Program-made: the position numbers and the translations under genes
The notes under the pieces: model-generated
Told to the model about the DNA's origin: nothing
Database searches by the model: none
The model's input: only the letters and a program-made list of their open reading frames with translations
Source of the DNA: Opitutia bacterium KCR 482
GTDB taxonomy: Bacteria > Verrucomicrobiota > Verrucomicrobiia > Opitutales > Intestinicryptomonadaceae
Direction: 5' to 3'
Assembly: GCA_029269845.2 (NCBI GenBank)
Contig: CP149973.1
Location: 2,010,001-2,042,000 of the forward strand
Length of the DNA: 32,000 bases
Part shown: positions 832-24,979 of the stretch, piece by piece
Position numbering within the stretch: position 1 is the stretch's first letter
Layout of the letters: every line of letters starts with the position of its first letter

Positions 832-886
832 AATGTTTTGACTTTTTTAACAATATATGCAGTATGTGTCAAATAAAGGAGTTACT

Positions 887-3258: not shown

Positions 3259-3475
3259 CTTGCCCTCTATCGGTTGGTTGAAATTTTTTATTCATTCTTC
3301 TATGATTTTGTAAAAATGCAAGGTTCAAAACTTAATTTACAAAGAAAAATTAAATCTCACGCTTTTTTGGGCTTGTGTACTGAATATAAGACAGTGCTAT
3401 GATATTTTTAAGTTGCACTATTTTATCCTTTTGAATTATATGGAAGGAGAAAAATTCATAACAACCTTACAAAAC

Positions 3476-5002: not shown

Positions 5003-5067
5003 ATAAATGGCATAACGGGCTATATAAGTTGCCTTTCTATATTTTCTAACATTACGTTACACTTTTA

Positions 5068-5094
5068 TTATCTCCGCGTGTTTTGCGGAGATAA
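5068..5094 (+). terminator. 10-bp perfect stem-loop (TTATCTCCGC-N7-GCGGAGATAA) between the ATPase and Fic genes
   Basis: Perfect inverted repeat 5068-5077 / 5085-5094, followed by TGCTTGTTTTT. It could terminate the ATPase transcript or be a regulatory hairpin for fic. Confidence 0.4.
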
Positions 5095-5151
5095 TGCTTG
5101 TTTTTCTCCGCAAAGTGTGTTTTGATGGCGTCGACAAAGGAAGTGTTGGGT

Positions 5152-6261
5152 ATGTATATTTACGAGTGCAAAGGTTGGCCTAAGTTTATTTGGAATGCGG
5201 CGGATATTCAGTCTGCGCTTTCGCGGGCTGTATTTGCGCAGGGCAAGTTGCTTGGCAAAATGGGCGCGCTTGGTTTCGACGTGAAAAACGAACAGGTATT
5301 AAGCAGCGTTTCCGACGAAATCATAAAATCTTCCGAAATCGAGGGCGCGAGTCTCAATCTCGAACAGGTTCGCTCATCGGTTGCGCGCAGGCTCAACATA
5401 AGCTACAAATCTTCTACCGAACCAAGCCGCTACGTAGATGGAGTAGTGCGCATGATGATGGACGCCATCGACAACTACGACCGACCACTTACGCAGGAAC
5501 GGCTTTTTTCGTGGCACGCGGCGTTGTTTCCGACCGGTTGGAGCGGTATGTCCGAAATAGAAGTCGGCAAATTCCGCTCGGATAAATTCGGGCGAATGCA
5601 GGTTGTTTCGGAGCGCGGCAGCCGCAAGGCAATTCACTACGAAGCTCCGAAAGCGGAAGTAATTCCCGACGAAGTCGCAAAATTTCTGCGCTGGACATAT
5701 TCGGTAAAGCCCGACTTAACCGCGGCGGCAATCGCGCACCTGTGGTTTGTAAGCTTGCACCCGTTTGAAGACGGCAACGGGCGCATAACACGCGCAATTA
5801 CGGAGTATATGCTTGCAAGGTGCGAAAAGTCGCAGCTGCGCTTTTACAGTATGTCGAAGCAAATAGAGCTAAACAGGCGAAATTACTACGACATAATTGA
5901 GCACACGCAAAAAGCCAGTCTCGATATAACGGGCTGGCTAATTTGGTTTTTCGATACAATTTTCGATGCAATTTCCGATGCCGACAAGATGAGCGAAAGG
6001 CTTGTGTTTAAAGCCCGATTCTGGCAGAATCTTGTAGATGTCGATATAAGCGCAGGACAACGAAAGCTCATAAATAGATTACTCGACGGCTTTGACGGTA
6101 AAATGACTTCATCGCGCTGGGCGAATATCCGCGACTGCTCGCAAGACACCGCCTCGCGCGAAATCAACGACCTCATCGCAAAAGGCGTCCTTTTGAAAGA
6201 GGGCGTAGGGCGTTCGACGCACTACGTTATAAATCGAAACAAAATATATCCCAATGAATAG
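5152..6261 (+). CDS. Fic family protein (AMPylase-type Fic domain with DUF4172-like N-terminus and C-terminal winged-helix)
   Basis: Canonical Fic motif HPFEDGNGRITR. The N-terminus MYIYECKGWPKFIW is typical of DUF4172-Fic proteins. Start at ATG 5152 follows AAGGAAG. GC is higher than in the neighbouring R-M block. Confidence 0.9.
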   Translation: MYIYECKGWPKFIWNAADIQSALSRAVFAQGKLLGKMGALGFDVKNEQVLSSVSDEIIKSSEIEGASLNLEQVRSSVARRLNISYKSSTEPSRYVDGVVRMMMDAIDNYDRPLTQERLFSWHAALFPTGWSGMSEIEVGKFRSDKFGRMQVVSERGSRKAIHYEAPKAEVIPDEVAKFLRWTYSVKPDLTAAAIAHLWFVSLHPFEDGNGRITRAITEYMLARCEKSQLRFYSMSKQIELNRRNYYDIIEHTQKASLDITGWLIWFFDTIFDAISDADKMSERLVFKARFWQNLVDVDISAGQRKLINRLLDGFDGKMTSSRWANIRDCSQDTASREINDLIAKGVLLKEGVGRSTHYVINRNKIYPNE

Positions 6262-6391: not shown

Positions 6392-6407
6392 CTCGTCCAT
6401 CCCGCCA
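6392..6407 (+). other. 16-nt copy of the tRNA-Asp 3' end (CTCGTCCATCCCGCCA), att-core-like
   Basis: Matches the last 16 nt of the tRNA fragment at 24474-24489 with one mismatch (A/G). The upstream sequence is not tRNA-like. Confidence 0.6.
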
Positions 6408-6415
6408 CTTTAAAA

Positions 6416-6446
6416 GCCGCAAGTTCAAAGACTTGCTGCTTTTTTT
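6416..6446 (+). terminator. Rho-independent terminator-like hairpin (copy of the tRNA-Asp terminator)
   Basis: GCCGCAAGT-TCAAAG-ACTTGCTGC followed by T7. It has one mismatch in the stem and is homologous to 24498-24527. Confidence 0.6.
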
Positions 6447-6589
6447 GTTTCTAAATTTCGCGCCAAACCCAGTATCCACGCGGCTTGCGGGGATACGATG
6501 CCGCGCAAAGCCAGTATTTAAGCCACTTGCGGCGGAACGCCCGCCCACCCGAAAACCACCAAAATTGGCGTTTTGTTGGTAGTTTTGGG

Positions 6590-7169
6590 TCAACACCAAA
6601 GAGAGTGGATTTCAATGAAAGACGCCGCATAGAACCAAGACCCTCAATCTGTAATTTTGGAAGTTTTTATAACCGTAAGCCATTCGTTGTATTAGTTTCA
6701 TTTTCCTGTGGAAGCCTTCCGTTATCCCGTTGTTTTTTGTAAATCTCCACATTCGGATTATCGGCGCAAACCAGTCGCTTATGGTTTCTGCGAGCCTCTC
6801 AAACTCTTGCGTCGCTTCGTATTTCATCTGTTTCATCATTGTTTTCAGTTCTCTTATATTTCTCTTACATTCCTTTGCCGTTTGATGTTTCCTGTTCAGT
6901 AGTTCGCATATCCGCCCGTCTATCGACGCTACTTTCGCCTTCCTGTAATAATGGTCGTAAAATACAACCTTCTTATGCCCGCAACCGCGACAAGACGGTA
7001 TACCGTCTTGTTTGTATTCCAACCTCGCAAAAAAGTCTCGACCTTTTCGCCAACTTCGTATTACTCTATAAAAACTAAACAACATCAGAGGCATTGTAGG
7101 ACTTCCGTCCTCTTTGCCTCCCTTTTTTTCTACTTCTTCTACCCTCATCCCACTACCTTTGACGTTGAG
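6590..7169 (-). mobile_element. internally deleted ISL3-family IS remnant (5' zinc-finger part joined to 3' end of the transposase gene)
   Basis: The C-terminal part, ...WRFTKNNGITEGFHRKMKLIQRMAYGYKNFQNYRLRVLVLCGVFH, is the ISL3 transposase signature. The N-terminal part is LEYKQDGIPSCRGCGHKKVVFYDHYYRKAKVASIDGR (zf-ISL3-like). The middle DDE region is missing, with the junction near 6909. Candidate imperfect terminal IRs are TCAACACCAAAGAGAGTGG (6590-6608, +) versus TCAACGTCAAAGGTAGTGG (7168-7150, -). Boundaries are low confidence. Confidence 0.65.
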
Positions 7170-7553
7170 AGGGTCGTATTCTTTGAGCGTTTTATCGCGG
7201 AGATTTATGCGCTGACTGTGCGCCATAAAGTTGCGCGCGCAGTCTTGCACCAATACAACCTTGTTGTATGAATTTAACTCGACGCGCCTGATGGCGTCGT
7301 TGATGACAATCTCGGTGGACAGCCCGCGCTTGTGGCATTCCGTGTTGAGTTTTAAGACGGCCAAACGAACGCCGCTTGGAATTGTCATATCCTCTGGGAG
7401 CGAATACTCGCTCCTAAGCGAAAACATAAAAGATTTTGCTTCGCTTTGGGTCGTAAACGACCTTGATTTTATTTTGCCCGCGTCGGGATAAAACACCAAA
7501 TAAGGCGATTTGCGCCCGTCGCGGTACTCCAGTCTGAGTGAATTTTTCTTCAT
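7170..7553 (-). pseudogene. N-terminal stump (~125 aa) of a possible tyrosine recombinase/integrase, truncated by the IS remnant
   Basis: MKKNSLRLEYRDGRKSPYLVFYPDAGKIKSRSFTTQSEAKSF...VLVQDCARNFMAHSQRINLRDKTLKEY resembles integrase arm-binding plus SAM-like N-domains. No catalytic domain follows. It is read in frame into IS sequence, which gives the 313-aa chimeric ORF 6612..7553. Confidence 0.35.
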
Positions 7554-9960: not shown

Positions 9961-9977
9961 ACGACAAAATATGTCGC
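9961..9977 (-). promoter_or_regulatory. GCGAC-N7-GTCGC element upstream of the twin AAA+ gene
   Basis: Minus-strand reading is GCGAC ATATTTT GTCGT. 39 nt lie between the element and the ATG at 9921. Confidence 0.55.
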
Positions 9978-10495: not shown

Positions 10496-11227
10496 CTACA
10501 AAATGCGAAATTTCTGTAAATCGTCCTTCGTTTGGAGAATGACATCATCTTTTAGCGGACGAATTTGATCTTTCATATTTTGCAACACACTTTTAGATGC
10601 ATTGTAAATGCGTTGGTAAAATTCAAGACGAGTAGGGAAATATGCGTTCCATCCGTCGCGAATACACGACGGCTCGATGGAATAATTCGACGTTGCAACA
10701 ATCAAAAATACTCCCGTTCCTTTTGAGTATAAAGCCTTGTTTATAAGTTGGTGAAAGAAAAAGTGGTTCCCTTTTCGTCCAAGCAATTTTGAGTAATCGG
10801 AGGTAATGGAAACAATGACGGGTAATTTTCTCTTCGCAATTTTGTTGTATTCAAAAAACGAACCGCCGAAGCTCTCCAAGAGTTTGTATCTTTCGCGGTA
10901 AATTCTGTAAAGAACTTCTGCTACATCGAGAATTTCGGGAGTTCTGGTTTTTACTTTTCCTCCCCAAAAATGGCAATTCCCCTTAAAACGCGAAAAGATT
11001 TTTCTCTCATTTGAATTTAAAATTATCTCCAATTCCTCGTCGGAATAACGCTCCGAAAGCGATGTAATTAGACTTGAAACGTATTTTGTCAAAAAGCGGT
11101 TGTCGCCTCCAATCAGAATATTCCCGAGCGAAAACAAGTCTTTGAAAACGGTTTCGCCCGTGCAGTTTTTGCCAATCGGAATAGTTATAGCTTTTTCAGG
11201 TTCAAAATTTTGATTTTCGTCTTTCAT
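10496..11227 (-). CDS. stand-alone FtsK/SpoIIIE-like motor-domain protein with degenerate Walker A and B motifs (predicted pseudo-ATPase)
   Basis: Collinear with the FtsK alpha/beta core. [34 protein letters not shown] corresponds to [47 protein letters not shown] corresponds to the Walker B segment (P. aeruginosa FtsK LPTIVVVVDEFADMM, sequence recalled from memory). [12 protein letters not shown] corresponds to GIHLILATQRPS. FPTRLEF corresponds to IPTRIAF. Confidence 0.75.
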   Translation of the reverse strand: [243 protein letters not shown]

Positions 11228-11250
11228 GTTAATTTATATACAAAAATTCA

Positions 11251-11267
11251 GCGACAGAATACGTCGC
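11251..11267 (-). promoter_or_regulatory. GCGAC-N7-GTCGC element upstream of the FtsK-like gene
   Basis: Minus-strand reading is GCGAC GTATTCT GTCGC. 23 nt lie before the ATG at 11227. Confidence 0.55.
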
Positions 11268-11283
11268 ATTCGCTTATGTATGA

Positions 11284-11775
11284 TTACAAAAACTCGTCAT
11301 ACAAAACGTTTCGCATTGTTGCGAGTATGTGGGGATTGGGGGTAGGTGGAAGTTCGAAGCCGTGTTTGTCGTTATACTCCCAATCTGTCTCATTTTCGGA
11401 CAGCACTGAATTTATGAAGTCGTTTAAGATGCGGCTTACTGCCGCGCTTCGGCTGATTCCCGCCGAACAATGAACGAGAATGTGTGTGATTTCCGTGTTT
11501 TTTAACGCTTCTTCAATGCTTTCCAAAATAAAGTATGCCATTTTGCGGTCAAAAACTTTTGTGATGCCTTTGAGCCCAATGTCTGCGGGGGTTGCGTCGT
11601 CAAAAAACAAAACAATTCCGTGTTTCGGTGAAATCGGAGGGCAACACAAATTTTTTACCTTACCGTCATCGTTTTTGCAAAAGTCGTTTATGCTTACAAC
11701 AAATAATGAATCGTCGGCTTCAAGCTCGGACTTGTGCGTTTCAACGTATCTTCGGCTACAATTAAATATTTTCAT
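11284..11775 (-). CDS. small cysteine-dependent (HCX5R) protein tyrosine/dual-specificity phosphatase-like protein
   Basis: P-loop signature ILVHCSAGISRSAAV (CX5R-S), with upstream acidic FFDDATP as a candidate general-acid loop. Size and layout resemble the prokaryotic 'predicted protein tyrosine phosphatase' family. It overlaps the upstream gene by 14 nt. Confidence 0.7.
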   Translation of the reverse strand: MKIFNCSRRYVETHKSELEADDSLFVVSINDFCKNDDGKVKNLCCPPISPKHGIVLFFDDATPADIGLKGITKVFDRKMAYFILESIEEALKNTEITHILVHCSAGISRSAAVSRILNDFINSVLSENETDWEYNDKHGFELPPTPNPHILATMRNVLYDEFL

Positions 11776-13000
11776 GGTTTTTAATACTTTCTATAATGTG
11801 GGGATAAACTCTTACAAATCTTTCTTGTAATTCTTGCGGGAGCTTATCCCAGCATTTGTGTTCTATACAATCGTCCAAATAAGCAGGATATTCTGCGCTT
11901 TTTAGCAAAGTAATCCACTGTTCGGGGTCATTTACATCGTCGAACGTATTGGAGGTAAGCCATTCGTCAATCTCAATAAAATCGTATTTTGTGGTGTTGC
12001 AGACTTTGCTTCGACAAGGCGAATCCTGTCCGAATGTTTTGTAATACTTTTCAAAATAAGAATCCGTGCCAAGTAGTCTATTCCAATCGGTTTTGTCTAA
12101 ACTTGTCCAATCGGAATTCGAAAGGAATTGGAGTTCAAAATTTTTGTTGACCAACAACAACTCTACCCATTCGGCAGAAGAAAAGTATTTAAATATTTTG
12201 CGCGAACATGCAGCGGCTCTCACATCATAGCTTTTTGCATATCGAAGAATGTCCTGCCAATTTTGCCGGCTTAGTTTTTTCCAATACGAAAAATCACATG
12301 CTATTTGATGAATTTCCTTTGAATGTTCGATTAACGTATCATCCATTATCCCGTCCAAAACTCTTTGTTTTAATAGAAACGTCCAGTTCTCCCCACTAAG
12401 TTGCGAGAAGTCTATTGATTTTAAATCGGCCATGCCCTTCGAAAAAAGCGCGATTTTCCCATTTGGGAACTTTGATGCTTGCGAAAACTTTTCGTTGCGC
12501 CTTAGCAGAAACCGCCAGTTTTCGATGCTAAGCAATTCGTATTCATTAAAGCATTTTTGCGGAATTATGCCGAGATACAGTAAGGCGATACGTCCCGCAA
12601 AATAATTCTTTGCGATATTTTCGTATTCTTTTGAAAAATCCAAAATCATTAACCACGAGTACGAATCGAGCTTTGAAAAATCCCGTTCGGGAAAGTTTGT
12701 CATCTTGCCTTTTCTTAAAACAAATAACTCGGCAAAATCATACTGTGAAAACTCGTCAATTTTGTTGCACAGGTCGCGCCTATTTGGGAAGCAAGCCAAA
12801 ATTGCAATTTGTCCGCGCAAAAATCGCGCGGCTTTTCTCAAAAACACGGGGTTTGATTTAATAAGGCGAATCCAGTCTTGCGTGCTCAATAAATCCCATG
12901 CATAAAAGTACTGTGTTAGATTTTGATGCTCAATAAGAGCATCGACGCCGTTAAAATCAAAAAGTCTTTCGATTTCTTTTTCGTATTCTTCTGCGGACAT
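11762..13000 (-). CDS. W-x2-(L/I)L repeat protein (degenerate repeats related to the 557-aa repeat protein)
   Basis: Recurrent segments include QDWIRLIKSNPVF, ENWRFLLRRNEKF, ENWTFLLKQ, QNWQDILRYAKSY, AEWVELLLVNKNF, TDWNRLLGTDSYF and EQWITLLKSAEYP. Start moved to ATG 13000 (MSAEEYEKE), 5 nt after AAGGAG, instead of the track start at 13105, which overlaps the regulatory elements. Confidence 0.7.
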   Translation of the reverse strand: MSAEEYEKEIERLFDFNGVDALIEHQNLTQYFYAWDLLSTQDWIRLIKSNPVFLRKAARFLRGQIAILACFPNRRDLCNKIDEFSQYDFAELFVLRKGKMTNFPERDFSKLDSYSWLMILDFSKEYENIAKNYFAGRIALLYLGIIPQKCFNEYELLSIENWRFLLRRNEKFSQASKFPNGKIALFSKGMADLKSIDFSQLSGENWTFLLKQRVLDGIMDDTLIEHSKEIHQIACDFSYWKKLSRQNWQDILRYAKSYDVRAAACSRKIFKYFSSAEWVELLLVNKNFELQFLSNSDWTSLDKTDWNRLLGTDSYFEKYYKTFGQDSPCRSKVCNTTKYDFIEIDEWLTSNTFDDVNDPEQWITLLKSAEYPAYLDDCIEHKCWDKLPQELQERFVRVYPHIIESIKNHENI

Positions 13001-13036
13001 ATATCTCCTTTTTTTGGCTCGATTATACATTTCAGC

Positions 13037-13053
13037 GCGACGAAATATGACGC
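13037..13053 (-). promoter_or_regulatory. GCGAC-N7-GTCGC element (one arm mismatch) upstream of the repeat-protein/phosphatase unit
   Basis: Minus-strand reading is GCGTC ATATTTC GTCGC. 36 nt lie before the ATG at 13000. Confidence 0.45.
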
Positions 13054-13086
13054 AAAGTGGCATTTTCACGATAAATTCAAAATAGT

Positions 13087-13103
13087 GCGACGTATTTTGT
13101 CGC
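13087..13103 (+). promoter_or_regulatory. GCGAC-N7-GTCGC element upstream of the WYL regulator gene
   Basis: GCGAC GTATTTT GTCGC with perfect arms. 45 nt lie before the ATG at 13149. Confidence 0.55.
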
Positions 13104-13148
13104 AATCGCCTGCTAAATTGTTTTCATTAAAAATCGAAAGGAAATGTT

Positions 13149-14147
13149 ATGCCAAAGAGCAACAACAATAACACAATCGCCCGACAGTGGGAAATGCTGA
13201 AAATGATACCCAAAAAAGCTCCAGGAATTACCGCCGCCGAGCTTGTGTCCAAACTTTCCTACGCGGGTATTGACGTCTCAAAGCGGACGGTGGAGCGCGA
13301 CCTGCGCGACCTCTCCCTGATATTCCCCATCGCTGCAACCGATTCCGTTCCTCCGTTCGGCTGGTATTGGATACGCGACATCGGTTGCGAGTTCGGCGGA
13401 GTTGAAGTTTCCGAAGCCGTATCGCTTACGCTTGCCGAAGACATTCTGAAAAGCGTTCTGCCAGTCTCGATGTTAAAAACTCTCGAACCGCGGTTTGAAT
13501 CGGCGCGCAAAAAACTTGCCGCGCTTGATTCTTTACCCATCAGCAAGTGGAGCAGTAAAGTTCGCTATATTCCCGATTCTCTGCCCACAACGCAGCCGTT
13601 CGTGAAAAATTCTATTCTCGAAACTCTGCAAACGGCACTTGTTGGCGGCAGGCAGATAAAAGTCGCCTACGACCCAATGTGGAAGAAGACAAAAACATAT
13701 ACGTTAAACCCTCTTGCAATAGTTCAGCGTGGCGCGCGTGGATATCTGATAGCCGTCATCGACGGCTACGAAAATCCCGTCCAATTTGCGATTCAACGGT
13801 TGCGGTCGGTTGAAATTTTGAAGACTTCCGCCATTCGCCCGAAAGGGTTTTCGCTCGACAAATACATCGAAAGCGGTGTAATGCAGTTCGGACAGGGCGA
13901 AGTTGTAAAGCTTAAAGCAAACGTCTCCGAAACGCTTGCAATGTATCTCGACGAATGCGAGATCGTAAAAGATCAAAAACTGCGCTTTGTGGACGGCAAG
14001 TGGCAGTTGTCGGCTACAATTAAAAATTCGTGGCAGTTGATGTTTTGGATTCGTTCGCAAGGTTCAGACATAACGGTTCTCTCTCCAAAATCCATTCGCG
14101 AAGATTTGTTAAATGACGCAAAAAAAGTTGTGGAAAATTATGGATAA
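13149..14147 (+). CDS. WYL-domain transcriptional regulator (wHTH-WYL-WCX architecture; BrxR/CapW/PafBC-like)
   Basis: N-terminal wHTH ITAAELVSKLSYAGIDVSKRTVERDLRDL. WYL-type core GRQIKVAYDP...YTLNPLAIVQRGARGYLIAV...VQFAIQRLRSVEIL. RBS AAAGGAA precedes the ATG. Confidence 0.85.
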   Translation: MPKSNNNNTIARQWEMLKMIPKKAPGITAAELVSKLSYAGIDVSKRTVERDLRDLSLIFPIAATDSVPPFGWYWIRDIGCEFGGVEVSEAVSLTLAEDILKSVLPVSMLKTLEPRFESARKKLAALDSLPISKWSSKVRYIPDSLPTTQPFVKNSILETLQTALVGGRQIKVAYDPMWKKTKTYTLNPLAIVQRGARGYLIAVIDGYENPVQFAIQRLRSVEILKTSAIRPKGFSLDKYIESGVMQFGQGEVVKLKANVSETLAMYLDECEIVKDQKLRFVDGKWQLSATIKNSWQLMFWIRSQGSDITVLSPKSIREDLLNDAKKVVENYG

Positions 14148-14655
14148 TTTGAATTTTACCGCCATCGATTTTGAAACCGCGAACGGGAATAGGGCGAGCG
14201 TTTGCAGTGTTGGCGCAGTATTTGTGCGGGACGGCGAAGTTGCGGATACTTTTTATAGCCTTATCCGGCCGACGCCGAATTACTACACCCTCACCCGCAT
14301 TCACGGACTTACGCGAAACGATACCGATTCCGCCGCAACTTTCCCCGAAGTGTGGTCTAAAATTTCTGATAGGCTGGGGAATGCGCTGCTTGTAGCGCAT
14401 TTTGCAACTTTCGATGAGTCGTGCTTGCGTCAAGTTTTCGCCGCATACAATATGCCCTACGACAACTATGAATTTCGTTGCACCTGTTGCGGCGCAAAAC
14501 GATATTTTTCGACTTTACCAGCTTCCCTGCGTCCCGAAAGAACAACTCTGGACGTTGTTTGCGACTACTTCAATCTTGAACTTAACCACCATAACGCGCT
14601 TTCCGACGCCGTCGCCTGCGCACAAATAGCAATAAAAATAAAGGACTATCTATGA
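14140..14655 (+). CDS. DEDDh 3'-5' exonuclease (DnaQ/epsilon-like)
   Basis: Exo I FTAIDFETANG, Exo II LVAHFATFDESCL, Exo III HNALSDAVACAQI. ATG 14140 overlaps the WYL stop by 8 nt (ATGGATAA). Confidence 0.85.
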   Translation: MDNLNFTAIDFETANGNRASVCSVGAVFVRDGEVADTFYSLIRPTPNYYTLTRIHGLTRNDTDSAATFPEVWSKISDRLGNALLVAHFATFDESCLRQVFAAYNMPYDNYEFRCTCCGAKRYFSTLPASLRPERTTLDVVCDYFNLELNHHNALSDAVACAQIAIKIKDYL

Positions 14656-15305
14656 AAATTCTGACCTACATAATTTTGGCTCTGACGCTCTGCGCTTGCA
14701 CAAAAAGCAACTGCACAATCACCGATAAAATTTTTGCATTCAAAGAAGATTCTGCGGCACATCAGACAATAAACGAAATGCTGCGCAAGAAGTTCGCCGA
14801 ATTGAAAACGGAAATTGCCGCCGAAGCTGCCGAAGCTAAACGCGACCCCGAAGCCGCACATATTCAATACGAAGTTTCCGCCGAAACAAAAGTTTATGTA
14901 AATACCCCCAAATTCTTTTCCGCAAGAAACGACTATCATACCTATACAGGCGGTGCACACGGCGACTCAATGTCGGAAGGCTTTAATATCGTGTTCAACG
15001 ATGATGGCACAATAACAAGACTCTCGCTCTTCAATGTAATCGACGTAAACAAGACGGACGAATTTGTAAAACTCGTCCTGTCGAAACTGAAACAGAAATA
15101 CGGTAAGATGCTTGCACTCGACGATATCAAAACAAACACCGACCTGCTCAACGCCATAGACGGATTCGTCCTCAGAAAAGACGGTCTGGAAATCTTCTTC
15201 AAAAAATATTCCGTAGCCTGCGGCGCTTGTTCCACCGCCCCGATTCTAGTTGAATATGGTCGTATTAGTGATATCGCCAACACGGTAATTGACATTATAT
15301 TCTAA
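14652..15305 (+). CDS. lipoprotein with DUF3298/DUF4163-like (RsiV/PdaC C-terminal type) domain
   Basis: Signal peptide plus lipobox MKILTYIILALTLCAC. YHTYTGGAHGDSMSEGFNIVF matches the GGAHG core of DUF3298. ATGA overlap with the exonuclease stop. Confidence 0.7.
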   Translation: MKILTYIILALTLCACTKSNCTITDKIFAFKEDSAAHQTINEMLRKKFAELKTEIAAEAAEAKRDPEAAHIQYEVSAETKVYVNTPKFFSARNDYHTYTGGAHGDSMSEGFNIVFNDDGTITRLSLFNVIDVNKTDEFVKLVLSKLKQKYGKMLALDDIKTNTDLLNAIDGFVLRKDGLEIFFKKYSVACGACSTAPILVEYGRISDIANTVIDIIF

Positions 15306-15327
15306 AATGATAACAATCTAAATTATT

Positions 15328-16446
15328 ATGATTTTGACTGCTATGGAAAATATATATTTAGAGCATTACAAGCCTTTAATTAAAAAGTTTATTGAAGAAA
15401 TGGACAAACTTGAATTACCTGAAATTCAAGGAATGCCAGAGCCATTTCTTAGTTATTTTGGGAAAAGATATTTTTCATCTCAGCAAAGAATAGTTTTTGT
15501 TGGTCGGGATACAAAAAACTATGGCGATCTAAGATTGTTTATCAAAGCGGAAAAAAACAACCCGCTTTCCAAAGTAAAGTCAGAGTTAAATTCATTCCAA
15601 AAGCTTGATTTTAGGAATTGGGGTTCTACAAGATATAAGTTTTTTGGTTTTATAATGATGTTTTTTGCAATCAAGAACGATTTACAACCAGAAAATTGGA
15701 CTCTCATCAAACAGGATAAATATAAAGACCTCTTGGAATCGTTCGCATGGGCAAATTGCCAACCCATAGAATATTATGAAAGCACAGCAAAACATCGAGG
15801 TGTAGATGGTGTTCTATGGGAAAAAATAAGAAATGCAGGACGAGTCTTCTACGGCTTTAAACATATTTTAACGACATTGGATCCTGATGTTGTTGTAATA
15901 CTGCACAAGAATATTCCTTCTGACTACTTTGAAGGTGTTAACATCCAAAAAATCGAGGGGAATTCATTTTATGAGCACTATATTTTGAACGATAAAAATG
16001 TACATATCATTAAACTTTGCCATCCAAATCGTATGCGTTTGACTGCAAGCGAGATGACTGTAAGTAACTTTTGTAATTTTTTGAAGGATAAAATGGATGT
16101 TATCAAAAAAGATTCAGTAATTTCAGCGAATACTTCTGCAAAAGTTGAATATTTTAAAAAATATAAAGAAAATTTAGCCAAAACTGCGGATAAATATGAA
16201 TTTATTTTTGCACTGGCGAAATATCTACAATCGCATAACATTTATATGTCATATAACGGGTTGGCAGAGCTTCTAAACTACTGCGGATATACAACGAATA
16301 GGGGTACTCAATATGTCGTGAATTCAAAACGGGCTAGAATTATAGGAACAGCGTATCGCCGTGCGAAAGATAAAAATGATCATAGTTTAGCCGAAACAAT
16401 AGCTACAGTTTTTGTGAATCCGAATTTTTCATATAAGTACGAATAA
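15328..16446 (+). CDS. hypothetical 372-aa protein; N-terminal ~240 aa possibly UDG-fold-like
   Basis: Starts 22 nt after the lipoprotein gene on the same strand, with lower GC than the three upstream genes. RIVFVGRDTKNYG and IIKLCHPNRMRL sit in the relative positions of UDG-superfamily motifs A and B. This is a weak, pattern-only assignment. Confidence 0.55.
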   Translation: MILTAMENIYLEHYKPLIKKFIEEMDKLELPEIQGMPEPFLSYFGKRYFSSQQRIVFVGRDTKNYGDLRLFIKAEKNNPLSKVKSELNSFQKLDFRNWGSTRYKFFGFIMMFFAIKNDLQPENWTLIKQDKYKDLLESFAWANCQPIEYYESTAKHRGVDGVLWEKIRNAGRVFYGFKHILTTLDPDVVVILHKNIPSDYFEGVNIQKIEGNSFYEHYILNDKNVHIIKLCHPNRMRLTASEMTVSNFCNFLKDKMDVIKKDSVISANTSAKVEYFKKYKENLAKTADKYEFIFALAKYLQSHNIYMSYNGLAELLNYCGYTTNRGTQYVVNSKRARIIGTAYRRAKDKNDHSLAETIATVFVNPNFSYKYE

Positions 16447-16502: not shown

Positions 16503-16519
16503 GCGACATATAATGTCGC
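16503..16519 (+). promoter_or_regulatory. GCGAC-N7-GTCGC element upstream of the Imm-family gene
   Basis: GCGAC ATATAAT GTCGC. The arms extend to 8 bp (CTCGCGAC/GTCGCGAG, 16500-16522). 22 nt lie before the ATG at 16542. Confidence 0.55.
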
Positions 16520-16541
16520 GAGTTTCGCTTATGATTTGGGT

Positions 16542-16736
16542 ATGGAAATTTTGGTGCTTTTAGTTGTTATATTATTGGCGGCATTTGTTTATTTTTTGCC
16601 TGTGATTATTGCGTTTTGGCGCAGGCACACTTACAGGTGGGTGATTTTTATTTTAAATATATTCGGGTTCTTGGGTATCTTTTGGATTGTAGCGCTCATT
16701 TGGTCGGTTTGGCCGCGCGACGAAATGTTTAATTAA
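16542..16736 (+). CDS. superinfection immunity (Imm_superinfect family) small membrane protein
   Basis: VYFLPVIIAFWRRHTYRWVIFILNIFGFLGIFWIVALIWSVW matches the YFLP.IIA..R.H......I...N...G.....W...L.W pattern of the T4 Imm-like family, with two TM helices. ATG 16542 preferred to TTG 16536. Confidence 0.7.
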   Translation: MEILVLLVVILLAAFVYFLPVIIAFWRRHTYRWVIFILNIFGFLGIFWIVALIWSVWPRDEMFN

Positions 16737-16744
16737 TTTTTTGT

Positions 16745-16761
16745 GCGACGTAAAATGTCGC
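16745..16761 (+). promoter_or_regulatory. GCGAC-N7-GTCGC element upstream of the 71-aa ORF
   Basis: GCGAC GTAAAAT GTCGC. 51 nt lie before the ATG at 16813. Confidence 0.55.
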
Positions 16762-16812: not shown

Positions 16813-17028
16813 ATGGCACTTTGGACTGTTACGGTAAAAGCAACAAGAAACATAAACGGTCTTAGACTCGAACGCGGAATGAGTGTGCAGGTCTCGTCGA
16901 TGTACCACCCGATATCGTATAATAACGGTGAAGCAACTCGTCAGGCTTTCATCCGAATCTATGGCATAGATTTAAAAAAGGCAGGCGCGCTTAGCATTGC
17001 GTACTTTGACATAGAAAAGCAAAACTAA
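16813..17028 (+). CDS. hypothetical 71-aa protein
   Basis: RBS AAAGGA lies upstream, the ORF has its own upstream palindromic element, and a terminator hairpin follows. No domain recognised. Confidence 0.55.
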   Translation: MALWTVTVKATRNINGLRLERGMSVQVSSMYHPISYNNGEATRQAFIRIYGIDLKKAGALSIAYFDIEKQN

Positions 17029-17036
17029 ATAACGAA

Positions 17037-17066
17037 GCGGCGGAATAATTTATTCCGCCGCTTTTT
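17037..17066. terminator. bidirectional terminator hairpin between convergent small genes
   Basis: GCGGCGGAATAA-T-TTATTCCGCCGC (12-nt arms) followed by TTTTT on the + strand. The stop of the minus-strand gene lies inside the hairpin. Confidence 0.65.
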
Positions 17067-17298: not shown

Positions 17299-17315
17299 GC
17301 GACAATACACGTCGT
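17299..17315 (-). promoter_or_regulatory. GCGAC-N7-GTCGC element upstream of the 70-aa ORF
   Basis: Minus-strand reading is ACGAC GTGTATT GTCGC. 36 nt lie before the ATG at 17262. Confidence 0.45.
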
Positions 17316-17346: not shown

Positions 17347-17363
17347 ACGACGTATTCTGTCGC
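17347..17363 (+). promoter_or_regulatory. GCGAC-N7-GTCGC element upstream of the 557-aa repeat protein gene
   Basis: ACGAC GTATTCT GTCGC. 95 nt lie before the ATG at 17459. Confidence 0.5.
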
Positions 17364-17458: not shown

Positions 17459-19132
17459 ATGAAAAAATACACAGATGAACAATTGGAAAAGTTCAATTCG
17501 GAAGAATGGTGCGACTTACTTTTGGCACAACCGCAGTTTGCTGAACAATGCGATAGATTTAATGCTTGGATGAAATTCAAATCAGGTGATTGGACTGATA
17601 TTTTGCGTAAACTACCGCAGTTTGCCGATAGATGTGATAAAATCAATGCTTGGACAAAATTTGAAGATGTCTCTTGTAGTCTTCTTATCCGCGAACAACC
17701 GCAGTTTGCCGATAGATGCGATAAAGTCAATGGTTGGGTAAAATTTAATGACTTAGCTTGGTACCTGGTTCTCTCTGCTCAACCGCAATTTGCAGACAGA
17801 TGTGATAAGCTAAACGGCTGGGCAAATTTTGATGGAAGAGTTTGGCATGATCTACTTTTAAAACAACCGCAGTTTGTAGAAAAAGCTAAAAACTATGCAT
17901 CAGGCTGGGCTGGTATTATTATGCAGACTCCTGAACTTGCATCTGAATGCAAAGATTGGGAGAAGTTCGGCGGTTCTGAATGGATTGAGCTTTTACCGCA
18001 GTTTACAGATTGGTGCGATAAGGTAAATGGTTGGATGAAATTTACTTCAGAAGATTGGTGCGAATTTCTTTCTAATCATCCAGAACTTGCGGGCAAATGT
18101 GATAAAATGAACGGCTGGGCGAAATTCAATTCAGGAGATTGGAGTGAACTTCTTTCTAATTTTCCAAAGTTTGCGAGTAAATGCGATAAACAAGATGGCT
18201 GGAAAAATTTTGATTCAGATGCATGGGGTGCTCTTTTAGGTTCCCAACCGCAGTTTGTAACTAGGTGTGATAAGTCTAATGGCTGGAGAAAAATCACTTC
18301 GGCAGATTGGGAATACATGCTTTTCTATCAACCGCAATTTGCAGACAGGTGTGATAAGGTTAACGGTTGGGTGGAATTCACTTCGGGGAACTGGAGTGAA
18401 CTACTTTCAAAACGACCGCAGTTTGTAGATAAATGCGATAAAGTTGATGGTTGGGAACAATTCGATGGAGAGGATTGGCGTGCTATTCTCTCTTCCCAAC
18501 CGCAGTTTGTGGACAGGTGCGATAAAATAAATGGTTGGGCTGAATTCGACGGCTTAAATTGGGGGTACCTACTTTCAAAACAACCGCAGTTTGCGGATAA
18601 ATGCGATAAAATGGACGGTTGGAAACAATTCGACGGATTAAGTTGGTGCATCCTTCTTTCTGCCAAACCACAGTTTGTAGAAAAGTGTGATAAAATGGAC
18701 GGATGGAAGCAAATTGATGGATCCGGTTGGAGTATCTTGCTTTCGGACCAACCGCAGTTCGTGGATAGATGCGATAAGGTAAACGGTTGGGCGGAATTCA
18801 CTTCAGGGAATTGGGTGGAACTTATTTTTAATCATCAGCAGTTTGCTGACTGGTGTGATAAGATGAATGGCTGGGTGGAATTCAATTCGGTTGATTGGCA
18901 CGATTTGCTATACTATCACCCAGAGTTTGCAGACAGATGTGATAAAGTGGATGGTTGGGGACAATTTGATGGATCAGAATGGAGATACCTTCTCTCGGGC
19001 CAACCGCAATTTGCAGATAGATGCGATAAGGTAAACGGCTGGATAAAATTCATTCCGGCGGATTGGGATGAGTTGCTTTCTTCCCAGCCGCAGTTTGTGG
19101 ACAAGCGAACAAAGTGTAAAAAGAACTCATAG
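17459..19132 (+). CDS. tandem 28-residue repeat protein (~19 repeats, consensus DW..LLS.QPQFADRCDKVNGW..F...)
   Basis: Almost the whole protein is made of 28-aa units. No signal peptide or TM segment. No named repeat family recognised. Confidence 0.85.
   Translation: MKKYTDEQLEKFNSEEWCDLLLAQPQFAEQCDRFNAWMKFKSGDWTDILRKLPQFADRCDKINAWTKFEDVSCSLLIREQPQFADRCDKVNGWVKFNDLAWYLVLSAQPQFADRCDKLNGWANFDGRVWHDLLLKQPQFVEKAKNYASGWAGIIMQTPELASECKDWEKFGGSEWIELLPQFTDWCDKVNGWMKFTSEDWCEFLSNHPELAGKCDKMNGWAKFNSGDWSELLSNFPKFASKCDKQDGWKNFDSDAWGALLGSQPQFVTRCDKSNGWRKITSADWEYMLFYQPQFADRCDKVNGWVEFTSGNWSELLSKRPQFVDKCDKVDGWEQFDGEDWRAILSSQPQFVDRCDKINGWAEFDGLNWGYLLSKQPQFADKCDKMDGWKQFDGLSWCILLSAKPQFVEKCDKMDGWKQIDGSGWSILLSDQPQFVDRCDKVNGWAEFTSGNWVELIFNHQQFADWCDKMNGWVEFNSVDWHDLLYYHPEFADRCDKVDGWGQFDGSEWRYLLSGQPQFADRCDKVNGWIKFIPADWDELLSSQPQFVDKRTKCKKNS
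17501..19106 (+). repeat. in-frame 84-bp tandem repeat array (coding)
   Basis: The conserved core (C[AT]ACCGCAGTTTGC) recurs at 17528, 17612 and 17696, an exact 84-bp spacing, and continues to ~19.1 kb. The units are diverged at the nucleotide level. Confidence 0.85.
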
Positions 19133-19230: not shown

Positions 19231-20394
19231 ATGCAAGGTATGAAAATTGAACGGTCGGAAAAGTTAAAAATCGAGAATGATTTAAATCGATTTCCTGTTG
19301 TTGCCATTGTAGGGGCGAGACAGGTCGGGAAAACAACTCTTGCAAGGGAAATTGTCGCCGACTTGAAGGAGTTGAGCGTTTATCTCGATATGGAAAAGCC
19401 TGCCGATTACGACAAACTTAATGATGCGTATCTTTATCTCAAAGACAACTCCGAAAAACTCGTAATAATCGACGAAATTCAGCTGCGCCCCGAGTTGTTT
19501 CCTCTGCTTAGAAGCCTAATCGACGAAGACAGAAGAAACGGCAGGTTTTTGATTCTCGGCAGTGCTTCGCCTGAGTTGCTGAATAAATCTTCACAATCAT
19601 TGGCTGGACGAATCTGTTATCACGAATTATCTTCGTTTAGTCTTTTTGAGGTAGGCGCGGAAAGTGCGGATAAACTATGGCTAAGGGGCGGTTTCCCCGA
19701 TTCATTTCTCGCCGCGGACGACGAACAAAGTTTTTCGTGGCTTGATTCTTTTGTTTCAACATTCTTGGAGCGGGATTTAAACATCTTGGGTTTCCGTCTT
19801 TCGCCGACTCAAATGCGCCGAGTTTGGACAATGACGGCGCATTATCACGGTTCGGCCATAAATTATTCGAGCCTCGGGAAATCGCTGGAAGTGTCGAACA
19901 AAACCGTAAAATACTGGTTGGACGTTTTGAGCGATACTTACATGCTCCGTCAGCTCCACCCTTGGTCTGGGAATACGTCGAAAAGACTGGTTAAGTCTCC
20001 CAAAGTCTATTTGCGGGATACCGGCATCTTGCATTCGCTTCTAAAAATAGAAACAAAAGATTCACTTTTGTCCCACCCGATACTCGGCGCATCTTGGGAG
20101 GGCTTCGCGATAGAGCAAATAATATCCGCCGCTCCCGCGCGTTCGGAATTTAGCTACTATCGAACGGCTACCGGCGAAGAAATCGACTTAATTGTGGATT
20201 CTCCGAAAGCGGGGCGAATTGCTTTTGAAATAAAGCGTTCTTCCGTGCCCGCACTCGGGAAAGGATTTTACAACGCGCTCGATACAATCAAACCTCAAAA
20301 GGCGTTTATCATTTATTCCGGCGACGAGCAATATCGCATAAATGATACAGTTTCTGCATTGCCGTTGAAGATGGTACCCGAGGTTTTTGAGTAA
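19231..20394 (+). CDS. AAA_14/DUF4143-type ATPase
   Basis: Walker A VVAIVGARQVGKTTL, Walker B LVIIDEIQ, RGGFPDSFL, and YLRDTGILHSLL typical of the DUF4143 C-terminal region. An alternative start is ATG 19240. Confidence 0.85.
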   Translation: MQGMKIERSEKLKIENDLNRFPVVAIVGARQVGKTTLAREIVADLKELSVYLDMEKPADYDKLNDAYLYLKDNSEKLVIIDEIQLRPELFPLLRSLIDEDRRNGRFLILGSASPELLNKSSQSLAGRICYHELSSFSLFEVGAESADKLWLRGGFPDSFLAADDEQSFSWLDSFVSTFLERDLNILGFRLSPTQMRRVWTMTAHYHGSAINYSSLGKSLEVSNKTVKYWLDVLSDTYMLRQLHPWSGNTSKRLVKSPKVYLRDTGILHSLLKIETKDSLLSHPILGASWEGFAIEQIISAAPARSEFSYYRTATGEEIDLIVDSPKAGRIAFEIKRSSVPALGKGFYNALDTIKPQKAFIIYSGDEQYRINDTVSALPLKMVPEVFE

Positions 20395-20527
20395 TATTCA
20401 ACAATATAAACCATAAACAATGTTGTGATGCATTGAAGCATTTAAACAACAAATATTTTTCTGACATAAGTATATAAAAATTCAATATTCACGAATAAGA
20501 TTATTAACTCGAGAATACATATAAAGC

Positions 20528-23500
20528 ATGCAGTTTATTCCTAATGGCCCAGATATTCCGATTCAACTATTGAAAGCTCACGAAGAAGGTAAGGTTGTAT
20601 TCTTTTGCGGAGCTGGAATATCTATGAATTTTGGGTTGCCAAATTTTGAAAATTTAGCTTATAAAATCTACGAACTGAACCACGAAGAACCGATTCCAAC
20701 CGAGCGTAATGCTATTAAAAATGGTTTTGTCGATGAAGCTCTTGAATCATTTGAAAATCGTATTGTAAGCGATAAAATATCCATCAGAAAATCGTTACAT
20801 TCCATATTAAAGCCAGATTATCGAAAAACCAAAGGAAATACGCACAAAGCTCTATTGGATTTGGCAAAAAACAAATCCGGTGAATATCGTATAGTCACTA
20901 CAAATTTTGACAGAATATTTTCCGATACTTTAGAAAAGTATAACATACCAGTAAGAGAACACATAGCGCCATACATTCCTATCCCCAAACCGACCAATTG
21001 GAACGGTCTTGTATATCTACATGGAAGATTACCAGACAAAGAAGAAGACATAAGTAGCTTAAAAAATTTAGTTCTTACGAGTGGAGATTTTGGGTTAGCA
21101 TATTTACGAGAATATTGGGCATCACGTTTTGTAAATGAATTATTCCGTAATTTTGTTGTTTGTTTTGTCGGGTATGGAATAAATGATCCCATTTTAAAAT
21201 ACATGCTGGATGCATTGTCTGCCGATAGAAAAGCTGGGGAATCTCAGTTCCCAGTTTATGCATTTATAGAAGATGACACAAAAAATACAGAAAACAAAGA
21301 ATTGATACATAACGCAATAATTCCCATACGCTATAAAACAGACAATAAGCATTCTCTTTTGCACGACACGTTGATTGAATGGGCGAATGTATATTCGAGT
21401 GGAGTCGACGGTAAGGTTCAATACGTTTTAAAATACGCATCTTCAGACCCATCAAAAAATTCTAATAACGATGATTACGTTGGAAGAATGATTTGGGCAT
21501 TGACAGATTATACCGGAATTCCTGCGAAGAAATTTGCCGAAATGAATCCGCCACCGACGATTGAATGGTTATATATATTTTCTGAAAAGGATCCATTTGG
21601 CTTTTTTGGGAATAAGAAAGTGAGTGAAAAGAACAATATTACAGAACCGATTGTAAAATGGATGTTAAAACACATTAATTCCAGCAAACTAATCTTATGG
21701 TTTGCAGAAAACAGATGGGGGGTTGACAAAAAATTTATCGCATTGGTTGAAGATGTGTTTACAAGAACCCTCATATTAATAAAAAATGGAGACCAGAAGA
21801 ACTCCCCATATGCAACCTTGTCAAAGCGTAACAAAGCGTTATGGTGGTTGATTCTAAGAGGTTATGTTTTAAGGAATCGCGATTTTGATTTTTATAATTG
21901 GATAAATCACTACGAGGATACAAAATTGGACTTCATTGGAAAGAAAACATTATACGAACTTTGTTCTCCAAAAATACAAATACAGAGAAACTTCTTATCG
22001 TGGAATGAAACAACTCATCAGCCAATCGAAGACGAAATTCTTATCGATGTTGTGCTGACATGCCAACAGTTACGTTATGAAAAAAATGCCATAAGAAAAA
22101 TTGTTCCTCTTGAAACCTTATTTGAATGTGCGCAAAAATCCTTAACCGACTTTCTAGATCTTTCTGGAGAATTAGATTTGGCAAACGAAAAATTTGATAG
22201 ATCGGCATACGACCTTCCATCCATTGAAGAACATCCGCAAAACAAAAAACATTACAGCGCATGGGTTGTTCTTATTGAACTACTTCGGGATATATGGTTG
22301 GATATTAATGCAACGAATCACAAAAAAGCAATGACAATTGCAATATCCTGGTGGCAAGAAAAATACCCAGCATTCAAGAGACTAGCACTTTTTGCTGCAT
22401 CTAAATCTAAACACATTAATTCCGCACTTTGGATAAAATGGATTTTAGCCGATAATGCATATTGGTTATGGGGTACGGCTACATATCATGAAGTAATTAC
22501 TCTCTTGTCGCAAAGAGCAATCGAATTACCTCCTATTTCATTTGAAAAATTGAAAGATGCAATAATGAGTGGGCCGCAACGGTCTTTGTATCGGAGAGAT
22601 ATTTCTGATGGAGAATATCAGCGTATTAGAGAACGCAAAATTTGGTATTACTTCGCAAAAATACAAAATGGCGGTTGTAATTTGCCTTCAACCATATCTG
22701 ATGTCTTGTCGAAATTTTCCCAACAATATGGGTGGAAACTTGATGATAATTCAAAGGAAGATTTTCTCTCCTGGTCGATCGGTTCGGGGGATCCAGAATA
22801 TGAAAATAGACCGATAACAGATAAAACTCCAGATAAACTAACAAATCTTGTTGAGTGGCTTGGGGAAGAGAAACAAAAAAACAATTTTTATTATAAGTCA
22901 GACTGGGCAGAGTTCTGTGCCGAAAATTATAAGTTTGCGGCATATGGATTGTATTTTGCCATAAAAAACAATAAATGTTCTAAAGAAAAGCTTAATGTTG
23001 CATTGGCAACTTGGTGTAGAAAAAGTGATACGTTAAGAAAGCTTTGGCAATTGATTCCAAGCACAGATCTATCTTTTATTAATAATACAACCATTAGTAA
23101 TTCCAAAGGACAAATAATTTCATGTTTAACTCAGTTATCAGAAGATACTGAAATTTGGAAGAAAGATGATACAAATGAAAATATTGAGGTATTTTGTGAT
23201 TTTTGTTTTAGAGTAATCGATATTGTGTTTAACAAAAAAGAATTTGATTCTGTCGATATAAATGATGCAATAAACGATCCATGCGAGCAACTTTCAGTGG
23301 CAATATTCAAAATATGGATAAGCGAAAATCCATCAAAAAATTCTGGATTAACAGAATATTGGAAAACTATATTTGGACGTTTATTAGATGTAAAAAACAA
23401 GAATTTGTTTTATACCAAATTCGCATTTGGGGAGTATTTGAACGCTTTGTATTACGTTGATAAACAATGGGTCAAAGATCATATGTATCCGATGTTTTTA

Positions 23501-24431: not shown

Positions 24432-24489
24432 AGAATTGCCCTGTCTGTCACGCAGGAGGTCGCGAGTTCGAGTCTCGTCCGTCCCGCCA
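24432..24489 (+). other. 3' fragment of tRNA-Asp(GTC), anticodon arm to CCA, lacking the 5' acceptor strand (att-site-like pseudo-tRNA)
   Basis: CCTGT-CTGTCAC-GCAGG (anticodon loop with GTC), AGGTC, GCGAG-TTCGAGT-CTCGT, CCGTCCC-G-CCA. It is collinear with E. coli tRNA-Asp ...CCTGCCTGTCACGCAGGGGGTCGCGGGTTCGAGTCCCGTCCGTTCCGCCA (recalled from memory). The complement GGGACGG is absent upstream, and the upstream flank is AT-rich. Confidence 0.75.
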
Positions 24490-24979
24490 CTTTAAAAGCT
24501 GCAAGTTCAAACACTTGCGGCTTTTTTGTTTCTACATTTCGCGCCAAACCCAGTATCCACGCGGCTTGCGGGGATACGATGCCAGTATTTAAGCCACTTG
24601 CGGCGGAACGCCCGCCCACCCGAAAACCACCAAAATTGGCGTTTTGTTGGTAGTTTTGGGTCAACACCAAAGAGAGTGGATTTTAATGAAAGACGCCGCA
24701 TAGAACCAAGACCCTCAATCTGTAATTTTGGAAGTTTTTATAACCGTAAGCCATTCGTTGTATTAGTTTCATTTTCCTGTGGAAGCCTTCCGTTATCCCG
24801 TTATTTTTCGTAAATCTCCACATGCGGATTATCGGCGCAAACCAGTCGCTTATGGTTTCTGCTATCCTCTCAAACTCTTGTGTCGCTTCGTATTTCATCT
24901 GTTTCATCATTGTTTTCAGTTCTCTTATATTTCTCTTACATTCCTTTGCCGTTTGATGTTTCCTGTTCAGCAGCTCGCA
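24474..24979. repeat. copy 2 of the ~510-bp direct repeat (see 6392-6908)
   Basis: See copy 1. Confidence 0.85.
24498..24527 (+). terminator. Rho-independent terminator immediately after the tRNA-Asp 3' end
   Basis: GCTGCAAGT-TCAAAC-ACTTGCGGC (9-bp stem with one G-U) followed by T6. Confidence 0.7.

Follow-up and report, generated by a model that had tools for sequence, protein, structure and literature searches.

A WYL regulator operon as the probable control hub of a local DriD-box regulon on a mobilisable defence island of rumen Opitutales

The WYL regulators DriD of Caulobacter crescentus and DdaA of Acinetobacter act on repair and division genes scattered over the chromosome, and the WYL regulators studied so far beside defence systems, CapW and BrxR, are repressors (PMC9122601, PMC11662680). 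Here we describe a four-gene operon encoding a WYL regulator, a DEDDh exonuclease, a lipoprotein and a protein of 372 amino acids (aa), found in a 32,000-nucleotide (nt) stretch of the genome of Opitutia bacterium KCR 482 (contig CP149973.1, positions 2,010,001 to 2,042,000) which is called the window below. This operon is probably the control hub of a local regulon of DriD-type boxes, carried on a defence island, integrative and mobilisable, found in Opitutales (Verrucomicrobiota) of the rumen. We favour this reading because of the identity of the box, the likeness of the regulator to DriD and the promoter register found at eight boxes. The first-pass annotation of this DNA had hesitated between the regulatory arm of a whole module and a separate nuclease system; the former is favoured, since DriD-type boxes are placed before the WYL operon and seven other units and since the box-promoter accompanies the WYL family across more than 80 loci.

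In Caulobacter the DriD box has the consensus ATACGAC-N7-GTCGTAT with an AT-rich spacer (PMC10853764), and its conserved G and C are read by residues R37 and R41 of the protein. DdaA recognises the identical CGAC-N7-GTCG (PMC13010146). Both are transcription activators switched on by single-stranded DNA (ssDNA). PafBC of mycobacteria is also activated by ssDNA and acts by sigma adaptation; its target promoters are devoid of a -35 hexamer, and a short, constant interval separates the motif from the -10 downstream of it (PMC11804915). For an exonuclease that may act on the ssDNA signal the closest precedent is the CapW-regulated cyclic oligonucleotide-based antiphage signalling system (CBASS) of Escherichia coli upec-117, which contains the 3'-5' exonuclease Cap18, the membrane protein Cap19 and a TRIP13 AAA+ protein (PMC11662680). 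For CapW the ssDNA ligand has been shown, and BrxR has more than one box per island.

The regulator of the window was matched in Pfam by WYL (7e-11) and WCX (1.4e-8), with a weak match to a helix-turn-helix (HTH) at the N terminus, and shows the winged HTH-linker-WYL-WCX order of DriD and DdaA, which are of similar length (about 330 aa). Among solved structures DriD was the closest to the single sequence (E 4.5e-5), and a profile built from 35 family members matched DriD over its full length (5.8e-11 across residues 25-328), followed by PafBC (6e-8), BrxR (8e-6) and CapW (2e-3). The matches to BrxR (8e-6 and 0.013) and CapW were confined to the WYL domain and both proteins are shorter (about 295 aa), their likeness lying in the domain order and the defence-island context, whereas the window regulator, with its 332 aa and its helical linker, fits the activator group. 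Moreover R46 and R50, which align to the base-reading R37 and R41 in the recognition helix of DriD, are invariant across the 35 members. Judged from sequence, the regulator is DriD-like, of the activator class, rather than BrxR/CapW-like; membership of the latter group was rejected in view of the weak WYL-only matches and of an operator that lies within the core promoter and has arms of 5 bp around a spacer of 7 bp. Of the WYL regulators that the first-pass annotation had named (BrxR, CapW, PafBC and DriD), DriD fits by profile, arginine pair and box. PafBC differs in being a heterodimer that does not bind DNA without RNA polymerase and that uses a single asymmetric motif in a chromosomal regulon. 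There are also differences from DriD and DdaA: the regulon proposed here is local, extending over a few kb of a mobile island, translational coupling ties the regulator to an exonuclease and a lipoprotein, and the regulator's own promoter has the activated geometry, while driD is not self-activated. A phage origin was rejected, as 2.9 million viral contigs gave just two weak WYL matches.

The palindromic element found in the window, GCGAC-N7-GTCGC with an AT-rich N7, includes the core of the published DriD/DdaA box. Ten matches to this pattern occur in the window, against 0.76 expected, and eight of them are intergenic, all between 9.9 and 17.4 kb. Two boxes lie in the divergent intergenic region of 148 bp (13001-13148, if the divergent gene starts at the ATG at 13000), one copy per side as had been claimed, at 13037-13053 with one mismatch and at 13087-13103. 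A protein search returned 218 regulator homologues, and a scan of one genome per species gave 419 related stretches, from which we retrieved 80 loci (labelled L001 and so on); some metagenome-assembled genomes (MAGs) contribute several WYL loci to this survey. The closest relatives are Opitutales MAGs from rumen or abomasum, and the WYL family is also present in Akkermansiaceae, Luteolibacter, Pseudomonas, Rheinheimera and others. The 17-mer GCGACGTATTTTGTCGC is placed, unchanged, 45-47 nt before the WYL ATG in L001, L002, L004-L008 and L085; it is identical upstream of the WYL gene in all relatives of at least 58% identity, and variants of it are found in many down to 40%. The box-promoter co-occurs with the WYL family across more than 80 loci. 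In 1.3 Mb of loci there are 96 perfect boxes, which are concentrated between -3 and +1 kb relative to the WYL genes and precede the WYL gene itself (17), a tandem AAA+ ATPase gene (12) or a DUF2779 gene (7).

The promoters behind these boxes share a register. When read toward the gene, a -10-like hexamer follows 9-10 nt downstream of the box at all eight window boxes, and among the 144 boxes of the window and related loci TAnnnT stands at offset 10-11 in 77 oriented cases, against a background of about 3 per other offset. The window boxes span about -39 to -23 of each promoter, and no -35 consensus is present at them; a canonical sigma-70 -35/-10 scan was at chance level overall, with no hit at the boxes. 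For didA the authors put an "optimised -35" at core box positions 5-10, and the design of didA, as read from the sequences in the methods, puts the -10 hexamer 11 nt past the box, which is the register of the window (PMC13004042). As far as can be read from the DNA, the box geometry of the window matches that of DriD-activated promoters, having in common with them the CGAC-N7-GTCG box with AT-rich spacer, the fixed distance to the -10 and the lack of a -35 (PMC10853764, PMC13004042, PMC13010146). No Rfam match and no tRNA was found in the window. The features are collected in Table 1.

Table 1. Genes of the WYL operon, and boxes with their -10-like hexamers, in positions of the window
Feature	Position	Strand	Details
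WYL regulator gene	13149-14147	+	332 aa; stop TAA 14145-14147
DEDDh exonuclease gene (predicted)	14140-14655	+	171 aa; stop TGA 14653-14655
Lipoprotein gene	14652-15305	+	217 aa; PdaC (DUF4163) and DUF3298
372-aa cargo gene	15328-16446	+	predicted N-terminal UDG-superfamily fold (about residues 1-240), helical C-terminal domain
Box GCGACGTATTTTGTCGC, WYL operon promoter	13087-13103	+	exact match
-10-like hexamer TAAATT, WYL operon	13114-13119	+	10 nt past box; no -35; didA register
Box GCGTCATATTTCGTCGC, divergent repeat-protein/phosphatase unit	13037-13053	-	1 mismatch; then TATAAT 13027-13022
Box, Imm_superinfect membrane protein gene (16542-16736)	16503-16519	+	TATGAT 16530-16535
Box, DUF6140 gene (16813-17028)	16745-16761	+	TAAAAT
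Box, 70-aa gene (17262-17050, -)	17299-17315	-	TATTAT
Box, 557-aa repeat-protein gene (17459-19132)	17347-17363	+	TATAAG
Box, FtsK-like 243-aa gene (11227-10496, -)	11251-11267	-	TATATA
Box, 738-aa tandem AAA+ gene (9921-7705, -)	9961-9977	-	TATAGT

In the operon itself the four-gene order, the overlaps and the element-free gap before the last gene were found in the open reading frames and junctions as the first-pass annotation had described them. The exonuclease ATG at 14140 lies within ATGGATAA, which makes an 8-nt overlap with the WYL stop; the exonuclease stop and the lipoprotein ATG, the latter at 14652, overlap as ATGA; and 22 nt without a box separate the end of the lipoprotein gene (15305) from the start of the 372-aa gene (15328). 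An alternative exonuclease start is present at 14113, and the gene calls of the relatives correspond to the 171-aa form. Both overlaps are kept in relatives down to about 55% exonuclease identity, and this arrangement shows the exonuclease and the lipoprotein to be conserved and, as judged from the junctions, translationally coupled with the regulator. PADLOC found no defined multi-gene defence system matching the operon; apart from the PDC-S48 exonuclease domain, its matches were to generic models of CRISPR-associated WYL and DEDDh proteins, and the lipoprotein and the 372-aa protein had none.

The second gene encodes a protein of the RNase_T/Rv2179c-like type (RNase_T 3e-17 in Pfam). Alignment to the PolC exonuclease 2p1j showed Exo I (IDFET), Exo II (VAHFATFD) and Exo III (HHNALSDA) to be intact, in agreement with what had been noticed before, and the product is predicted to be a DEDDh (DnaQ-like, PF00929) 3'-5' exonuclease. 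It did not match the Cap18 model in PADLOC. We asked of the neighbourhoods whether the WYL-exonuclease pair might be a ubiquitous housekeeping pair, as had been considered, and this was rejected: in a metagenome scan centred on the exonuclease, WYL and boxes were present in one of 44 loci, a near-identical island, and the genes stand on an element with integrase and mobilisation genes. With exonuclease homologues of about 50% identity standing apart from any WYL gene or box, the pair is neither ubiquitous nor housekeeping.

The WYL-DEDDh-lipoprotein arrangement with the same overlaps was found in L001, L002/L003, L085, L090, L136-L138 and L141. After the lipoprotein gene the content changes. 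The 372-aa gene occupies this place in the window and in L085, whereas L001 and L136 have two GmrSD genes there and L002 and L005 a PDDEXK_4 nuclease gene. The first three genes are a conserved core and the position behind the lipoprotein is a variable cargo slot. In the wider survey, a DEDDh gene was directly downstream of WYL in 8 of 75 WYL loci and within six genes in 12, and a DUF2779 gene was directly downstream in 11 and nearby in 22; one or the other was within six genes in 34 of the 75 and directly downstream in 19. DUF2779 proteins combine a Cas4-like domain with a predicted 3'-5' exonuclease (PMC3985635). A homologue of the 738-aa AAA+ protein of the window was encoded in 30 loci.

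The lipoprotein had been annotated as an exported DUF3298 protein, and this is supported by its sequence, as both its Pfam domains score above the gathering cut-off (PdaC 2e-13, 51.6 bits against 29.1; DUF3298 4e-6, 28.1 bits against 24.1) and the lipobox cysteine is conserved: within MKILTYIILALTLCAC the motif L-x-[AS]-C16 is kept in 10 of 11 sequences, as read from the sequences themselves. The DUF3298 crystal structures 3cyg (9e-8) and 3s5t also match. Like RsiV and PdaC the protein has both DUF4163 and DUF3298, a module that in RsiV binds lysozyme (PMC5014341), but unlike these it is a stand-alone lipoprotein of Gram-negative type without an anti-sigma or deacetylase domain. The family is narrow (23 clusters), with 58-96% identity among the core loci; a homologue at 49% identity was found without WYL, and in WYL loci the lipoprotein is confined to the closest clade. 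Its final 15 or so residues vary with the cargo.

The trailing 372-aa gene had been called unknown. It indeed had no Pfam match and no sequence match to any named family, and we can refine the description to an exchangeable cargo with a predicted fold of the uracil-DNA glycosylase (UDG) superfamily. Close homologues are only three among 5.8 billion proteins, and all three adjoin DriD boxes or island genes; a profile search extended the family to at least 280 cluster representatives, and many of these comprise no more than the N-terminal 250 aa. The AlphaFold2 model (75 sequences) reached a predicted local distance difference test (pLDDT) score of 91.6, and with Foldseek the best 13 matches in the PDB were all of the UDG superfamily (TDG, family-4 UDG, UdgX), with probability 0.9-1.0 and template modelling (TM) scores by target of 0.44-0.55. 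G59 is invariant in the family and D/E61-T62 and H232-P233 are nearly so; judged by their place in the model, where G59-x-[DE]61-T62 follows beta1 and H232-P233 follows the last strand, they stand where motifs A and B would be expected. At the motif-A-like position the close relatives carry GQDT, comparable to the GQDPY motif of family-1 UDG. The gene has 33% GC, against 48% in the WYL and DEDDh genes. A BLASTP comparison with the 260-aa proteins that adjoin some WYL genes (cluster c20) gave a short motif match only.

Proven anti-phage glycosylases with a UDG fold, Brig1 and Brig2, come from AT-rich, mobile and defence-rich contexts (PMC11078745; bioRxiv 10.1101/2025.10.29.685425). The 372-aa protein resembles them in its predicted UDG fold, the candidate motifs G-x-[DE]-T (motif-A-like) and H-P (motif-B-like) and the AT-rich island slot; unlike them it has an additional helical C-terminal domain of about 110 aa, and the comparison is one of fold and published description. 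It is a candidate Brig-like anti-phage glycosylase rather than a demonstrated member of that group. Homologues of it were also seen apart from the core, at L089 1053-1863 next to a DUF3298 gene that has a DriD box of its own, and at L086 1415-2216 beside phosphatase and Imm-like homologues that each stand behind a box. In these two loci one gene pool is reshuffled as box-promoter cassettes.

In L085 and L136, integrase-like, MobC/NikA and further mobilisation-type genes lie to the left of the same gene set, and in the window the AAA+ gene replaces this mobilisation part. No boxes were found upstream of the integrase and mobilisation genes of these two loci, and the idea of the regulator as a master switch of element transfer is disfavoured for that reason. 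The window contains a direct repeat of about 420 bp, 98% identical (6392-6809 and 24474-24880), both copies being 3' fragments of ISL3-family transposase genes (6612-7553 and 24683-25210, minus strand), which bracket an 18-kb segment with the box regulon and Dsr1. The low-GC remainder (857-6261 and 19231-24172) is defence-like and encodes an HTH-C5 methylase with an MspI-like endonuclease (an MspI-type restriction-modification system), an AAA_15 ATPase, a DUF4172-Fic protein, an AAA_14/DUF4143 ATPase and the Dsr1 sirtuin (1029 bits). An Imm_superinfect protein is also encoded in the window, and from about 25.9 kb onward the sequence is host-like, with 55% GC.

Several points weigh against the operon as a control hub or against parts of that reading. 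The regulator and DriD, which come from different phyla, share only about 25% identity. Residues Y168, Y192 and W206, which contact ssDNA in DriD, have conserved counterparts (Y174, Y199 and F213), but those of K202 and R204 are not conserved in the regulator family, and since the contacts are only partly conserved the ligand could differ from that of DriD. The promoter rules of Verrucomicrobiota are not established, and an absent -35 may be normal there. The exonuclease family is also found without WYL, and in the CapW-controlled system a catalytically dead Cap18 left CBASS protection unchanged, while loss of Cap19 had an effect (PMC11662680; bioRxiv 10.1101/2022.01.04.474952). The similarity to the UDG fold is moderate (TM 0.44-0.55, E 2e-3 to 5e-2). 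The AlphaFold2 model of the lipoprotein is poor (pLDDT 54), of too low a quality for fold comparison, and because of this the role of the lipoprotein is a conjecture. To these must be added that the box covers the core promoter in the -35/spacer region, where a repressor would sit, and that both defence-associated WYL regulators studied so far repress.

These last two points are the strength of the reading that competes most directly, in which the regulator, in the manner of CapW and BrxR, sits on the boxes and occludes RNA polymerase until ssDNA releases it, so that the island is silent until infection or damage. A span of about -39 to -23 is a classic repressor position, and the CapW-controlled CBASS of upec-117 has a comparable company of 3'-5' exonuclease, membrane protein and TRIP13 AAA+. 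However, the profile similarity to CapW and BrxR is far below that to DriD and PafBC, the operator is of DriD type (5-bp half-sites, 7-bp spacer) and not of the BrxR type, which has 10-11-bp arms and a 5-bp spacer and lies between promoter and gene (PMC9122601), and promoters without a -35 in the didA register (PMC13004042) suggest the need for an activator. We consider such a repressor unlikely, though a real possibility; from geometry and class, activation would be considerably likelier than repression.

A general DNA-damage response of the host or element, with a repair exonuclease and the neighbouring defence genes as coincidental cargo, would agree with the control of DNA-damage genes by DriD and DdaA, including the recJ exonuclease (PMC9186387, PMC13010146), with DEDDh and UDG-fold enzymes as classic repair activities, and with the lack of a PADLOC system that matches the operon as a unit. 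Yet the boxes are restricted to the WYL neighbourhood, 9.9-17.4 kb in the window, and the operon is placed on an integrase/mobilisation element and varies among close relatives. Moreover other loci have in its slot GmrSD, a restriction enzyme that depends on modification; Imm_superinfect and Dsr1 are close by; and some single MAGs hold several WYL loci. Together these points make this explanation improbable. It is more improbable still, to a degree that we hardly entertain it, that there is no functional unit at all and that tight gene packing has been joined by chance to palindromes that are terminators or repeat debris. Some boxes do score as weak terminator-like hairpins, and overlapping starts and stops are common in compact genomes, but the overlaps persist in relatives with as little as about 55% protein identity, the boxes agree with an operator that was defined by experiment and the residues that read it are conserved in the regulator next to them, and the distance of the boxes to -10 hexamers and gene starts is fixed in dozens of phylogenetically distant loci. 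Terminators and debris of repetitive extragenic palindromic (REP) sequences or miniature inverted-repeat transposable elements (MITEs) were rejected for this fixed spacing across phyla.

If the operon is the control hub, the following course of events can be proposed. A dimer of the regulator would recognise the GCGAC-N7-GTCGC boxes, which would stand in for the -35 in eight promoters, its own included. By analogy with DriD, DdaA, PafBC and CapW the WYL domain may sense ssDNA; ssDNA from phage replication or DNA damage would bind it, and the dimer would then dock on the boxes and recruit RNA polymerase, turning on all cassettes together. The exonuclease would most likely act on the signal, either making ssDNA by resecting ends or nicks left by the cargo or removing it and so resetting the switch. 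The UDG-fold cargo probably excises modified bases from phage DNA, and relatives would use GmrSD or PDDEXK_4 nucleases in its place. More speculatively, the lipoprotein, whose fold family is RsiV/PdaC-like, may act at the envelope, as may the Imm-like membrane protein, which has a promoter of its own. The system joins known kinds in a new variant, in which a regulator of DriD type is combined with a UDG-like effector on a defence island. With low confidence in the whole, we suggest tentatively that this could be a plug-and-play immune regulon, in which portable box and -10 promoters are served by one ssDNA sensor and DEDDh turns nicks, breaks and abasic sites made by the cargo into activating ssDNA, a feed-forward alarm that would also induce the lipoprotein and the Imm-like protein as envelope exclusion factors and would exist in a DUF2779 and AAA+ version in Akkermansiaceae and many Proteobacteria.

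Other arrangements around WYL genes were noted in the survey. A trio of AAA+ (about 700 aa), WYL and DUF2779 (about 500 aa) genes, in this order, occurs in Akkermansiaceae, Luteolibacter and some Proteobacteria, in loci that include L012, L013, L021, L028, L038, L041 and L081, where boxes precede the AAA+ and DUF2779 genes; it looks like a widespread uncharacterised module. In Rheinheimera and relatives (L043, L058, L061, L063, L075) a gene for an FtsZ/tubulin-like protein is followed by WYL and a DnaA/IstB-like ATPase gene, with a PP2C phosphatase and a 238-aa unknown protein encoded nearby. In an Opitutaceae MAG (L011 10994-15400) and in L072 a GmrSD-like pair lies beside a WYL gene of 46% identity with a box upstream, and this is an independent recurrence of the WYL-GmrSD association of L001 and L136.

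Some further features of the window concern the genes behind the boxes. The genes at 11762-13000 (minus strand) and 17459-19132 (plus strand) encode proteins made of tandem repeats of about 28 aa (84 nt) with the motif QPQFADRCDKVNGW; neither had a match in Pfam or NCBIfam, both sit behind a DriD box, and homologues recur in related islands. The 243-aa protein encoded at 10496-11227 (minus strand) is FtsK/SpoIIIE-like, judging from a faint Pfam match of its L141 homologue and from reading by eye, and has no recognisable Walker A motif. It is always accompanied by a 164-aa unknown protein, and in L006 and L007 the two genes follow directly after WYL-DEDDh. At this gene (11224-11240) and at that of Imm_superinfect (16530-16545) no more than 6-7 nt separate the end of the -10-like hexamer from the ATG, and leaderless transcripts may be expected there for that reason. 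The extended stem of the box at 16503-16519 may also end the transcript of the WYL operon, and the convergent DUF6140 and 70-aa genes are separated by a strong hairpin with a 13-bp stem (17035-17063) that probably serves as a terminator in both directions.

The switching of defence islands is poorly understood, and it has yet to be established what produces or removes, in infected cells, the ssDNA to which WYL sensors respond. If the proposed reading is true, a DriD-class and probably activating ssDNA sensor over eight cassette promoters would be a regulatory design different from that of BrxR and CapW, and its operator is simple and portable enough to be searched for genome-wide. The repeated association of this regulator family with 3'-5' exonucleases, either DEDDh or DUF2779, suggests enzymes by which the ssDNA signal is produced or removed. 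Moreover an unannotated family of at least 280 cluster representatives is nominated as candidate anti-phage glycosylases with a UDG fold, and the AAA+/WYL/DUF2779 module is identified as what looks like a widespread uncharacterised system.

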